A DNA stretch of 64,000 bases, taken from Cyanobacteria bacterium P01_A01_bin.123 (GTDB lineage Bacteria > Cyanobacteriota > Cyanobacteriia > Phormidesmidales > Phormidesmidaceae). Made by a program: the position numbers and the translations under genes. Of the stretch, positions 55,628 to 61,841 are shown piece after piece. Numbering within the stretch: position 1 is the stretch's first letter; the number at the start of each line of letters is the position of its first letter. The notes beneath the pieces are model-generated. The model did not search any database and was not told the origin of the DNA. It was given only the letters and a program-made list of their open reading frames with translations. The DNA lies in assembly GCA_039815185.1 (NCBI GenBank), contig JBCBZT010000006.1:32001-96000 (forward strand). Direction: 5' to 3'.

Positions 55628-57721
55628 GTGGTAGCCGCTCAACCCCAAACTTGGCAGCAAGTTAATCAGCGCGATTTGATCAGCGCGATCACGCAAGTGC
55701 GATCGCTGCTGGAATACTATGGGCGATCGCCAGCAGATCCAGCTTCCCCTGCTAACCCGCCGCCCCAGCCCCGCGAACTGACCAATGCTGCGGCTGACGG
55801 CTCTAGCCCATCAGCCCTGCAGCAACTTTGCCAGGTCTTTGGGCTATCTGCGTTTGAGCGCAATATTTTGCTGCTTTGTGCAGGCATGGAATTTGTCAGT
55901 CAATGGGGAACGCTTTGCGCCTCGGCCCTGGGCAATTCGAGCTGGACCTACCCCACTTTTGGCTTGGCCCATCTGATTTTTGAACAGACAAACTGGCAAA
56001 AGCTAACCCCGATGGCTCCCCTCCGCCGCTATCGGTTGATAGAAGTCCAAGGGGGCACAGCACTGATGACCAGCCAACTGCGGCTAGACGAGCGGATTTT
56101 GCATTATCTGATGGGGATTGATCAGGCAGATGCTCGCTTGCAGGCTTTAGCCGAAGCAATTCCAACGACGCCGTTAACGACGCTGGTGCCCTCCCATCAG
56201 GCGGCTGCCCGCCAGATTATCCAAACCTGGTTGCAAACCTCTGAACAGTCTCCCCACCTGCGGCGATTGCCGATTGCTCAACTGGGGGGCAGCGATCGCG
56301 ATCGCGATCGGCAGATCGCCGCCGCCGTCTGCGATCACTTCAGTCTAAATCTCTACACCTTAGGGGCACAGTCACTGCCGACTGACTTGAATGAGGTTGC
56401 CGCGTTGCGGACCCTCTGCGAACGAGAATATCGGCTAGAACGGGCGATTTATCTGGTGGAACTGGTGGATTATGGGAATGCGAATGGGGCACAAAAGGCC
56501 GCGATCGCTCAATTTATTGAAACCATGGATGCCCCGGTCTTGATCAGCAGCGACGATCGCTATCCCCAACAGCAGCGCTCCCAAATTTATCTGGCGGTAC
56601 AAGCCCCCACCAAAGTCGAACAGCAAAAGCTTTGGCAGTCTGCCCTGGCTGATTTGGATGTCGATCTCAACGGCCATGTCGCGGCCCTTACTTCCCATTT
56701 CAACCTCAATGCCTCTGTGATTGATGCGGCTTGTCTCCATGTGAAAGTGCAACGCGACTTGAACGGTGTGGAAGCTAATTCTGCCAGTCCTGATGGAGCC
56801 CCAGATTCTGACCCAGACAATCCTGACTCAGATAATCCTGACTCAGATAAGGCAGCTTTCTCCCACGTCAAGGCCCTTTGGGGCTACTGTCGTAGCCAAG
56901 CCCGTCCCCGCCTGGATGAACTCGCCCAGCGGATTGAGGCCCAATCGACTTGGGAGCATCTGGTGCTGCCTGACAAAGAGCAGGCGTTGCTTAAAGAAGT
57001 CGCGGCCCATGTTCGTCAGCGATCGCGGGTGTACGACACTTGGGGATTTGGTAGGCAGGGAACGCGCGGGCTGGGCATTAGTGCGCTGTTCGCCGGGGCT
57101 AGCGGCACCGGTAAAACCCTCTCGGCTGAGGTGATCGCCAATGATCTGCACCTGGATCTCTATCGCATTGACCTCAGCTCAATCGTGAGCAAGTATATTG
57201 GCGAAACGGAGAAGAATTTGCGTCGCGTGTTCGACGCGGCAGAAGGGGGCGGCGTAATTCTGCTGTTTGATGAAGCGGATGCCCTGTTTGGCAAACGCAG
57301 CGAGGTTAAAGATTCCCACGATCGCTACGCCAATATGGAAGTCAGCTATCTGCTACAACGGATGGAGTCTTACCAGGGGTTGGCGATTCTCACCACTAAC
57401 CTGAAGCGCTCAATGGATCAAGCGTTTTTGCGCCGCCTCCGGTTTGTGGTTCAGTTTCCCTTCCCAGATGCGGCTCAACGGGCCGAAATCTGGCGACGCA
57501 TTTTTCCGGTGCAAATGCCTCGGGATGAGCTGAAATATGACAAGCTGGCAAAACTGAGTATCCCTGGGGGCAATATTCGCAATATTGCGATCAATGCGGC
57601 ATTTATCGCCGCTGATGCGGATGAAGCAGTTGGCATGAAACATATCCTGCAAGCCGCCAAAGGTGAGTATTCAAAACTTGAGCGGCCTTTGACGGATGCG
57701 GAAGTGAAGGGTTGGATCTAG
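55628..57721 (+). CDS. AAA+ ATPase, eCIS-associated (Afp15/Pvc15-like)
   Basis: FGLSAFE N-terminal region, GASGTGKT, IDLSSIVSKYIGETEKNL, LLFDEADALFGKRSEVKDSHDRYAN and D-x-AFLRR motifs; a DUF4157 gene is nearby. Confidence 0.88.
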   Translation: MVAAQPQTWQQVNQRDLISAITQVRSLLEYYGRSPADPASPANPPPQPRELTNAAADGSSPSALQQLCQVFGLSAFERNILLLCAGMEFVSQWGTLCASALGNSSWTYPTFGLAHLIFEQTNWQKLTPMAPLRRYRLIEVQGGTALMTSQLRLDERILHYLMGIDQADARLQALAEAIPTTPLTTLVPSHQAAARQIIQTWLQTSEQSPHLRRLPIAQLGGSDRDRDRQIAAAVCDHFSLNLYTLGAQSLPTDLNEVAALRTLCEREYRLERAIYLVELVDYGNANGAQKAAIAQFIETMDAPVLISSDDRYPQQQRSQIYLAVQAPTKVEQQKLWQSALADLDVDLNGHVAALTSHFNLNASVIDAACLHVKVQRDLNGVEANSASPDGAPDSDPDNPDSDNPDSDKAAFSHVKALWGYCRSQARPRLDELAQRIEAQSTWEHLVLPDKEQALLKEVAAHVRQRSRVYDTWGFGRQGTRGLGISALFAGASGTGKTLSAEVIANDLHLDLYRIDLSSIVSKYIGETEKNLRRVFDAAEGGGVILLFDEADALFGKRSEVKDSHDRYANMEVSYLLQRMESYQGLAILTTNLKRSMDQAFLRRLRFVVQFPFPDAAQRAEIWRRIFPVQMPRDELKYDKLAKLSIPGGNIRNIAINAAFIAADADEAVGMKHILQAAKGEYSKLERPLTDAEVKGWI

Positions 57722-57775
57722 AAAATAAATTCTATACTTTACCTACTCAGCCTTCTTTCTGAAGTAGAACAAGCC

Positions 57776-58114
57776 ATGCAGCTGACGCTCGACTCCAAGA
57801 TTCAAGATCGTCTAGGTCTGTCAGGCCAGGAGATTAGCACCTTCTGCCAGAGGTGGGGAATTAGCAGCATGGCCCTCTTTGGTTCTGTGCTTCGAGATGA
57901 TTTTGACAGCGAGAGCGATATTGATGTTTTGTTGACGTTTATGCCTAATGTGCGACAGGGATTATTAACGCTGGCTAGAATCAAGCATGAGCTAGAAAAT
58001 CAATGCCATCGTCCTGTCGATATTGCACTTAAGGAGGGAATCGAAGCAAGCGACAATTGGATTCGGCGACAGGAAATCTTAGGGACTGCCCAAACTATCT
58101 ATGAACAGAGATAA
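57776..58114 (+). CDS. MNT antitoxin (MntA-like nucleotidyltransferase)
   Basis: ALFGSVLRDDFDSESDIDVL motif; overlaps the HEPN gene by 14 bp. Confidence 0.9.
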   Translation: MQLTLDSKIQDRLGLSGQEISTFCQRWGISSMALFGSVLRDDFDSESDIDVLLTFMPNVRQGLLTLARIKHELENQCHRPVDIALKEGIEASDNWIRRQEILGTAQTIYEQR

Positions 58115-58439
58115 GGCTTCCTTACTCGATGTGCTTAATGCGACGCAGCGGATTCTAGATTTCACCTCAGGACTATCCAAGATAGAGCTCGATAAGAATG
58201 AAGAGAAACAGTCTGCTATTTTGTACCAAATTATCGTAATTGGTGAAGCCACTAAGCGATTATCTCCAGAATTTCGGAGCCAACATTCAGCCATTCCTTG
58301 GAAAGAAATTGCTGGGATGAGAGATGTCTTAGCTCATCAGTATGATCGTGTAAATTTGAATACGTTGTGGAGTGTCATCCAAGATGATGTTCCTGAACTT
58401 CTCAATCTGATTCAACCTCTTTTAGTTGATTTACATTGA
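58101..58439 (+). CDS. HEPN/DUF86 RNase toxin (HepT-like)
   Basis: IGEA and IPWKEIAGMRDVLAHQYD (Rx4HxY) motifs. Confidence 0.92.
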   Translation: MNRDKASLLDVLNATQRILDFTSGLSKIELDKNEEKQSAILYQIIVIGEATKRLSPEFRSQHSAIPWKEIAGMRDVLAHQYDRVNLNTLWSVIQDDVPELLNLIQPLLVDLH

Positions 58440-58573
58440 TGGCTGATATCAATCAAGCAATTGGCGTGAAGCGCATCTGTGAAATAAGATAAAGATCTAG
58501 TAACCCAGCGTTTTTTGCTTTAGTAGATGCTGGATACTGAGACTATATGACAATTAAATTGCGAGGGCTGACC

Positions 58574-60925: not shown

Positions 60926-61161
60926 GGTACCTGAATTAATGCCCTTATTGTAGATTCCTGAAATCTAAGTCATTGGAGTTTTATTGTTATTTTTAATAGA
61001 ACAAACGAACCTCAGAAAACACAAATACTTGAAGTCATAATCCGTGTGTTAACACCGCAGAGCGATTGATGATTCTGAATTTAGATAAAAGTCTGTACTC
61101 AGACTTGCAGCCAATAGCCCATACTAGAGGCACCTATTTGTAAATATTCAATCGGCTGACC

Positions 61162-61662
61162 ATGAAAACGCGACAGTATGTTCATAAGCCAGCACAGGAT
61201 ATGTCTCGGGTGTCAGCCAAGAAGTTCTTGCAAACACGTCCGTTTCAAGTTGAGAATCATCAGGGACAACGAATATCCCAAGGACAACAAGTCTCAGAGT
61301 CTGTGACCAGAGGCTTCGATCTCACGAGCACTCAGTCGTTTTCGGCAGTTGAGGGATCTATTGCTGCATTGGGCCAACCGCTTCAGACCAAGCTCACTAT
61401 TGGTGCACCCAATGATAAATACGAACAAGAAGCAGATCGCGTTGCACACGATGTTGTCCGGCGGATGAATGCACCCCAATTTAATGCAACTCCGAATGCA
61501 CTCAACCCATTAGATAGTCATCTACGCCAGCGTCATAAATTAGAAGCTCAAGCTATCAAGGTTAAAGATTGTGCAAACGCTGCTGAAGCGATCCAGTTTG
61601 CAGGGGAAGACCGCCGAAAATTAGTGAAACTTGCAAAGATGAGTGGAGAATCTGATCTTTAA
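61162..61662 (+). CDS. Short paralog carrying the effector N-terminal leader but no DUF4157 (mini-effector or decayed copy)
   Basis: MKTRQYVHKPAQDMSRVSAKKFLQTRPFQ...GFDLT...LQTKLTIGAPNDKYEQEADRVAHDVV aligns with the 58574 protein. Confidence 0.7.
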   Translation: MKTRQYVHKPAQDMSRVSAKKFLQTRPFQVENHQGQRISQGQQVSESVTRGFDLTSTQSFSAVEGSIAALGQPLQTKLTIGAPNDKYEQEADRVAHDVVRRMNAPQFNATPNALNPLDSHLRQRHKLEAQAIKVKDCANAAEAIQFAGEDRRKLVKLAKMSGESDL

Positions 61663-61755
61663 GTCTGGTGGATTGGACTTTACCAATCCATCCCTTTTGG
61701 GCTGACTGCGTTGGTTGCAAACCGGGGTGAACCAGCAATATCTCGAAAAAAGAAT

Positions 61756-61841
61756 CGCTTAGAGCGTGCGATTTATTTCGTAGATTTGGTTGGCTATCGC
61801 AATCAACTGGGGCACAAAAATCTGCGATCGCCCAATTTATA
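61756..61841 (+). pseudogene. Frameshifted internal fragment of a second AAA ATPase copy
   Basis: RLERAIYFVDLVGYRNQ(-1 frameshift)GAQKSAIAQFI versus RLERAIYLVELVDYGNANGAQKAAIAQFI at 56432-56518. Confidence 0.8.

Follow-up and report, generated by a model that had tools for sequence, protein, structure and literature searches.

Among the ATPases of contractile injection systems (CIS), those of the Pvc15, Afp15 and Alg15 type, here called Cis15, are the closest described relatives of the protein studied here. According to the accessible parts of the respective reports, Pvc15 picks out signal peptides (PMC11495950), Alg15 and its Walker B glutamate are required for loading, for which the N-terminal domain is also required and DUF4157 is dispensable (10.64898/2026.05.27.728243), and the ATPase of the Streptomyces coelicolor CIS is needed for activity but not for assembly (PMC10020575). 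The same 2026 preprint, as far as it is accessible, presents specificity between leaders and ATPases only as a hypothesis (10.64898/2026.05.27.728243). Here we describe a locus that encodes a Cis15 AAA+ ATPase of 697 amino acids (positions 55628..57721, + strand) in a 64-kb window. The window is the whole stretch of DNA analyzed, and corresponds to G000:C95:32001-96000 in an 8.09-Mb, 133-contig cyanobacterial draft genome (completeness 99.99%, contamination 5.99%). The window ATPase shares its domain plan and intact motifs with Pvc15, Afp15 and Alg15 but, unlike them, lies apart from structural genes and from Pvc16, and it is one of four Cis15-type ATPases in its genome. We propose that the locus very likely encodes the loader and a kinase cargo of a CIS, termed system B, that is split over four loci, the ATPase being its only cognate Cis15 and displaced from its cluster.

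Split CIS loci are already published; what sets the present locus apart is that the loader itself is unlinked. In the accessible part of the dbeCIS report, 13 genomes have 'split loci', with tube and baseplate genes in two places that were sought only in genomes lacking a contiguous locus, and T6SS-iv, a type VI secretion system, is stated to work when split (Chen et al. 2019, PMC6899500). In contrast to these cases, two systems of a single genome are each split here, and one of them is separated from its loader. Earlier reports also describe DUF4157 cargo, encoded either close to operons or apart from them (PMC8213781, PMC11297309, PMC12210884). We found no report of unlinked or surplus Cis15 loaders in the open literature, most subscription papers and bioRxiv supplements being out of reach, and Table S2 of PMC6899500 may list unlinked ATPases. 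In Supplementary Table 1 of the report on the thylakoid-anchored CIS (tCIS) of Anabaena PCC 7120, the Afp15 row is blank, yet 204/219 tubes were filled (PMC8894136, seen in part), which suggests that the loader may be unlinked there too. The Anabaena tCIS resembles system B as a cyanobacterial CIS with DUF4157 cargo (PMC8894136). It is of a different subtype, the system-B sheath being matched by All3325 over its C-terminal part alone (E 1e-47).

Results

The genome encodes three CIS, and no structural gene of any of them was found on the contig of the window. A genome-wide search for sheath, tube, baseplate J and Pvc16 genes had been proposed by an earlier interpretation of the window from its letters (the sequence-only reading). 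Our family searches returned 10 tube, 4 sheath, 5 Pvc16, 3 baseplate J, 3 VgrG-OB and 28 DUF4157 matches in G000, with no tube, sheath, Pvc16, baseplate J or VgrG-OB match on C95. Likewise, 29 structural queries from G000 had 0 matches among the open reading frames (ORFs) of the whole 216-kb contig, which extends the absence of structural genes noted by that reading for the 64 kb.

System C is contiguous on contig C96 and has its own ATPase. System A occupies C9, with the order regulator, long Pvc16, ATPase and two cargo genes, together with sheath, tubes and baseplate, and has its VgrG on C47. System B includes C15 (kinase, regulator, long Pvc16 without an ATPase behind it, short Pvc16, sheath, four tubes and an Afp7-like gene), C14 (two cargo genes, gp25, J and P2_I) and C43 (VgrG and a PAAR-like gene). 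All of the listed system-B ORFs are full length, and the pieces all lie inside long contigs (49.8-50.7% G+C). Taken together, C15, C43, C14 and C95 provide the core set of an extracellular CIS (tube, sheath, Afp7-like, VgrG, gp25, J, ATPase and Pvc16). Systems A and B are each split.

Phylogenetic evidence assigns the window ATPase to system B. Its best relatives among 41 genomes are those of G008 and G023 (76%), followed by sequences at 52-56% over full length. The same two genomes hold the best relatives of the C15 sheath (87-88%), the C15 long Pvc16 (58%), the C14 baseplate J (72%) and, among 5 genomes searched, the C43 VgrG (71%). G023 yields a single match with each of four queries (ATPase, sheath, long Pvc16, J). 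FastTree phylogenies of 39 ATPase, 25 Pvc16 and 22 sheath sequences place the G000 copy as sister to G008 plus G023 with support of 1.0, 0.978 and 0.573, respectively. System A is a mirror of this, paired with G012 at support 1.0 in all three trees, with 74% for the C47 VgrG. A tree with Afp15/Pvc15 homologs had also been suggested; ours, built from genome sequences with the characterised Pvc15, Afp15, Alg15 and SCO4259 left out, nests the window ATPase among Pvc16- and sheath-linked ATPases. The analysis shows the gene identities, their complementary content, one ancestry for all parts of system B, and the leader families. The idea of a satellite loader and cargo serving a particle encoded elsewhere is supported as to the particle, but the ATPase is very probably the sole cognate Cis15 of a four-locus system and not an extra satellite.

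Relatives of the window ATPase lie behind Pvc16 and before cargo of the leader-DUF4157-effector type, as with Cgo1/Cgo2 of the AlgoCIS; in G008 and G023 the order is long Pvc16, ATPase and DUF4157 cargo. The usual position of a Cis15 inside a CIS cluster is kept in part by these orthologs, and not by the window ATPase. A contiguous, ancestral-type cluster of the system-B type is retained in G014. The breakpoint falls between Pvc16 and ATPase in G000, G009, G013 and G028, and between regulator and Pvc16 in G008 and G023. Because the breakpoints differ among genomes, the ATPase appears to have left the cluster more than once. Neither an ATPase remnant behind the C15 Pvc16 nor a Pvc16 remnant before the window ATPase was found.

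Among solved chains, the system-B sheath is closest to 8bky/8bl4 (E 4e-113), which we take to be the Streptomyces CIS. System B is a lineage-II, Streptomyces-like CIS, and probably belongs to subtype IId. In its single VgrG ORF, one J and PAAR-like gene it resembles the cytoplasmic CIS of S. coelicolor (IId), and, together with the sheath match to 8bky, these gene forms fit the accessible IId text of PMC6899500. However, the S. coelicolor genes are in one region, whereas system B has four loci and scattered DUF4157 cargo.

The window ATPase has the Cis15 plan of an N-terminal winged-helix domain (WHD; PF22977) and a C-terminal AAA domain (PF00004), with intact Walker A (490), pore loop (521), Walker B (545) and arginine finger (600) motifs. 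No solved Cis15 structure occurs among the best 60 of its 193 PDB matches, and metagenome scans gave no close relative of its N-terminal part. A complex prediction for ATPase plus leader scored 0.13 against a mark of 0.32 and is evidence neither way. The gene is kept at its window position in contigs of runs X2 and X5. Its linker contains a short tandem acidic repeat, PDSDPDNPDSDNPDSD, at 56790-56850, of which run X5 shows a variant differing in length by 15 bases.

The fourth Cis15-type ATPase of the genome, on C97 (L029:5881-10801), belongs to an island of Pvc16, ATPase, an unknown gene and a short DUF4157 gene, for which G000 showed no structural set that would match. Relatives of this island in G008c and G019 lie inside full clusters of another subtype, and the island may be the true orphan loader of the genome. 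A 490-amino-acid WHD plus AAA protein (G000:C65:9207-10679) is distinct from the four Cis15 ATPases.

We clustered the leaders of 30 DUF4157 or leader-bearing ORFs of G000. Leader family B comprises 7 ORFs, two in the window, two beside the C14 baseplate and one each on C82, C99 and C129; family A has 17 ORFs and family C has 2, with 4 singles, and there is no mixing among the three families. Leader B has strong full-length matches (E <= 1e-23) only in G000, G008 and G023, the matches in other genomes being weaker and mostly partial (best 8e-13). Of the 41 genomes, G000 and G012 alone have leader A. Judged by their sequences, shared leaders tie scattered cargo genes to their own system. For 54 ATPase-cargo neighbours, the share of pairs with related leaders was 0/195 at an ATPase identity below 45%, 10/807 at 45-55%, 16/330 at 55-65%, 32/54 at 65-75% and 39/45 above 75%; these counts include a few rows with a cargo or a genome in common, and co-inheritance alone could produce them.

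The family-A ORFs form an unusually large set for one system and are scattered over C9, C28, C32, C47, C52, C71, C82, C108, C112, C113, C122 and C132; an ADP-ribosyltransferase domain is present in one of them, and another has an M35 peptidase domain. The family-B cargo gene on C99 (L032:9588-11456) contains an in-frame TAG inside DUF4157, and the family-B leader protein on C82 (L033:7031-8335) lacks DUF4157 and is encoded among phage portal and Mu-F head genes in a prophage-like region. A Methyltransf_28 plus TPR gene adjoins DUF4157 cargo at three loci (L024:17283-18938, L032:11571-13163 and L073:6969-8582). Within their first 40 residues, many cyanobacterial cargo leaders of different families have a short (Q/S/T)RPF motif, which may be an element of loading common to them.

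The cargo gene of the window (58547..60925, + strand) probably starts at GTG 58574, as in its close relative P0001. It follows the plan of leader, DUF4157 with HExxH motif and variable effector: a leader at about residues 10-112, DUF4157 (PF13699) at 193-270 with HELTH, a helical linker, and an atypical kinase domain at about 522-792 (60110..60922, + strand), which the sequence-only reading had overlooked. This C-terminus matches PF09192 at 36.3 bits (cut-off 24). A structure model of residues 522-792 (pLDDT 93.8) matches the actin-fragmin kinase (AFK) of Physarum (1cja) with a Foldseek E of 4e-9 and TM of 0.76. Its Z is 23.4 at a root mean square deviation of 2.8 over 257 aligned residues, with CtkA and PI4KII next at 13.0, and 1cja was the sole match in a profile search of the PDB (E 5e-14). 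The catalytic residues K563, E572, D664, N680 and D696, and also N677, show no variation across 18 aligned sequences. The cargo kinase also has an arginine after the catalytic aspartate and an insert before the asparagine, which are AFK features according to the accessible part of PMC1261164. It resembles the Physarum enzyme over the whole domain fold, but is bacterial, is only ~20% identical and is fused to a CIS leader and DUF4157. The model thus indicates an intact AFK fold, and a shared fold does not show substrate.

Relatives of the kinase in a representative library number 24, of which 3 have DUF4157 and 7 have the LQxxxGN motif, presumably linked to CIS cargo. An Atlas cluster of similar fold (TM 0.75) has 53 members, all with DUF4157 and mostly cyanobacterial. 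A profile of the close kinase subfamily matched 0/400 further genomes of this class, G008 and G023 among them, with at most three candidates scored per genome. Given this rarity and the G+C content of the C-terminal part of the cargo gene (38.7%, versus 55.3% for the ATPase gene), the kinase domain was probably acquired recently. Metagenome scans with the cargo gave leader/DUF4157 matches only, at 71 loci. We found no report of an AFK-fold kinase as CIS cargo in the open literature, most subscription papers being out of reach. The kinase may well act on a bacterial protein, either in the cell that makes it or in a competitor. A possible but less probable target is eukaryotic actin, as it is for the Physarum enzyme; a lipid target would be unlikely, and it is more doubtful still that the kinase has no toxic role.

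The interval between ATPase and cargo genes appears to be a variable slot. It contains genes for an MntA-like minimal nucleotidyltransferase (MNT; 57776..58114, + strand; PF01909 above cut-off), the predicted antitoxin, and a HepT-like HEPN RNase (58101..58439, + strand; PF01934 above cut-off), the toxin of the pair. In MNT-HEPN order, overlap and motifs (GSx10DxD and Rx4HxY) they resemble HepT/MntA pairs, but they remain below the NCBIfam equivalog cut-offs (32.1 and 38.9 bits versus 60). G000 has 7 further MNT paralogs and 6 further HEPN matches. The pair is absent beside the G008 and G023 ATPases, and a contig of run X2 joins 57715 to 58565, skipping it, while one of run X5 carries it. This toxin-antitoxin (TA) pair, previously counted as a component of the locus, is therefore a strain-variable insert. 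A role as immunity or system part was rejected in view of its 6-7 paralogs in the genome and its absence in relatives and some strains.

Behind the cargo gene, a leader-only ORF of 166 amino acids (61162..61662, + strand) is a probable truncated cargo relic. Its family-B leader is 57% identical to the cargo leader over 103 amino acids, but it has neither DUF4157 nor an effector domain (0 Pfam and 0 NCBIfam families) and does not follow the cargo plan. Of the DUF4157 effector or effectors suggested before, there is thus one, the second being this relic. In a contig of run X5, the 1485 bases before 61549 are unlike those here, which hints at a different gene in the cargo slot of that strain. Run X5 gave no cover in bins 58844-59177 and 59512-61181, a hole that proves nothing; its two joints across the hole have short sides (27-28 letters). 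A decayed partial copy of the window ATPase gene, also previously overlooked, lies at 61741..61842 (+ strand) and matches 56415-56519, with 76% over 88 nucleotides and 61.7 bits (maximum of 24.7 in 100 shuffles). It matches the three other ATPase paralogs with at most 23.8 bits, and a weaker extension reaches back to ~61594, with a stop and a frameshift.

We surveyed 80 ATPase loci from named genomes, dropping 39 with flanks below 8 kb and keeping 41; locus labels came from BLAST to G000 proteins, by which divergent genes may be missed. Structural genes were present at 24 loci and lacking at 17, so that the layout is not rare. Ten of the 41 had neither structural genes nor Pvc16, 5 of them with DUF4157, the pairing for which the sequence-only reading had proposed a survey. 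In the 22 genomes with a structure-free ATPase locus (the 17 plus 5 with shorter flanks), a sheath was found elsewhere in 22/22; on finished chromosomes the distance reaches megabases. Of the 41 relatives, 24 are ATPase-positive, and a sheath was present in 23 of these 24, the exception being 69% complete; 15/17 ATPase-negative genomes also had no sheath match. There is overlap between these two samples, and related genomes are not independent observations. The structure-free layout is common and is tied to a particle, which speaks against the suggestion of an ATPase/DUF4157 toxin system independent of CIS.

ATPase matches exceed sheath matches in 9/22 genomes. Besides G054, described next, a surplus was seen in G042, G045, G048, G050, G055, G057, G058 and G059. 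The finished Nostocales genome G054 (L180-L189) has 11 ATPase matches, one split by an insertion, with one sheath and 16 DUF4157 matches. Nine of the 11 ATPases have a DUF4157 or leader-bearing gene as neighbour, often in head-to-head orientation, and these genes belong to different leader families. Of the ATPases, 9 were compared with the in-cluster copy, to which they are only 50-56% identical. This genome has the true satellite form that had been imagined for the window, and is more surprising than the window locus.

The ATPase, MNT, HEPN and cargo genes and the 166-amino-acid ORF lie on one strand between two unrelated genes recognized by domain search, a divergent TPR protein gene on the left (54237..55451, - strand) and a convergent HupE/UreJ gene on the right (61850..63133, - strand), all at the positions and on the strands previously assigned to them. 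Close orthologs of the TPR gene occur in G034 and G037, on contigs other than those of the CIS genes. HupE/UreJ orthologs occur in 4/40 relatives, and in G007, G011 and G022 they are off the contigs on which CIS genes were found. None of the 40 relatives has both flanking genes, and none was found with a CIS cluster adjoining either. Promoter and terminator scans of the locus were at chance levels (7 versus 8.7 and 5 versus 6.7, respectively). A repeat of ~107 bp at 62972-63079, upstream of the probable HupE start, has 170 near-full-length matches in G000 and very high depth in four runs, and resembles miniature inverted-repeat (MITE) or repetitive extragenic palindromic (REP) elements.

Discussion

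We suggest that the ATPase gene was cut from its usual place behind the long Pvc16, which is still on C15, and moved with the cargo gene. Particles would be built from the genes of C15 (sheath and tubes), C43 (VgrG and PAAR-like) and C14 (baseplate). By analogy with other systems, the ATPase most likely acts in trans, where it would recognize the disordered family-B leader, unfold the cargo and feed it into the tube. As the ATPase is not a part of the particle, it need not be co-encoded with it. The cargo would deliver an active atypical kinase. The slot behind the ATPase may be a site of turnover, in which the TA pair was inserted, the effector domain exchanged and relics left behind.

Several observations weigh against this assignment. 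The sheath-tree node is weak (0.573), characterised Pvc15, Afp15, Alg15 and SCO4259 stand outside the trees, and the assembly is a draft with the contamination given above. The shared ancestry of leaders and ATPases, in pairs that are not independent, may reflect co-inheritance rather than recognition. The leader-only ORF, the ATPase fragment and the C99 family-B cargo with its in-frame TAG are signs of decay. Moreover, system B is known from genes, from which particles, expression and loading are predicted.

The same signs of decay, together with four separate loci and an ATPase without its operon and regulator, are what would be expected if system B had been broken by rearrangement and were no longer made, leaving ATPase and cargo as remnants. 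We consider such a relic very unlikely, as the ATPase motifs and the catalytic residues of the kinase are intact, the listed system-B ORFs are full length, the ATPase is at the same place in contigs of runs X2 and X5, and G008 and G023 retain a split arrangement whose breakpoints are not those of G000. Deletion of a full cluster at this very position finds no support among the 40 relatives, given the flanking genes described above. The ATPase could instead be an adapter, plugged in as a satellite, that gives family-B cargo access to any of the resident particles, those of systems A and C among them. Three systems in one cytoplasm, the apparent use of surplus ATPase-cargo cassettes in this way by some Nostocales, and the excess of ATPases over sheaths in 9/22 genomes (11 versus 1 in G054) would suit this idea; nevertheless it is improbable for G000, where this ATPase is no surplus copy but the only one of system B, all parts of that system have one ancestry, and the leader families are unmixed.

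The least probable explanation, and a far-fetched one in our view, is a CIS-independent toxin or anti-phage system resembling IetA that includes the TA pair. C95 lacks structural genes, 5/41 loci have ATPase and DUF4157 without Pvc16 or structural genes, and there are weak PADLOC/NCBIfam matches to IetA. However, the IetA match covers only the AAA part, the ATPase falls among Pvc16- and sheath-linked ATPases, and sheaths accompany such ATPases in 22/22 and 23/24 genomes, with 15/17 ATPase-negative genomes lacking a sheath match; the TA pair is absent in relatives and some strains. In IetAS, the partner of IetA is an adjacent S8 peptidase gene. Membership of the locus in IetAS was rejected, with 98 bits versus a cut-off of 510 and no peptidase family among the neighbours.

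Beyond the assignment to system B, we speculate, with considerable reserve, that there is a loader-leader code in which each Cis15 reads its own leader family, and cassettes of ATPase and cargo are plug-ins that add payloads to one resident particle. The 11 ATPases of at least five lineages with one sheath in G054, and the missing in-cluster Cis15 of the Anabaena tCIS, speak for such a code. The window locus would then be an early-stage plug-in cassette that carries as payload a bacterial actin-fragmin kinase directed against actin in eukaryotic grazers.

By their leaders, scattered cargo proteins can be allotted to a system, and leader families follow their systems across genomes. G000, in which a single cell has three systems with separate ATPases and with leader families of 7, 17 and 2 ORFs, is a natural test of leader specificity. 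Catalogues of CIS that are based on clusters miss loaders and most cargo in cyanobacteria.

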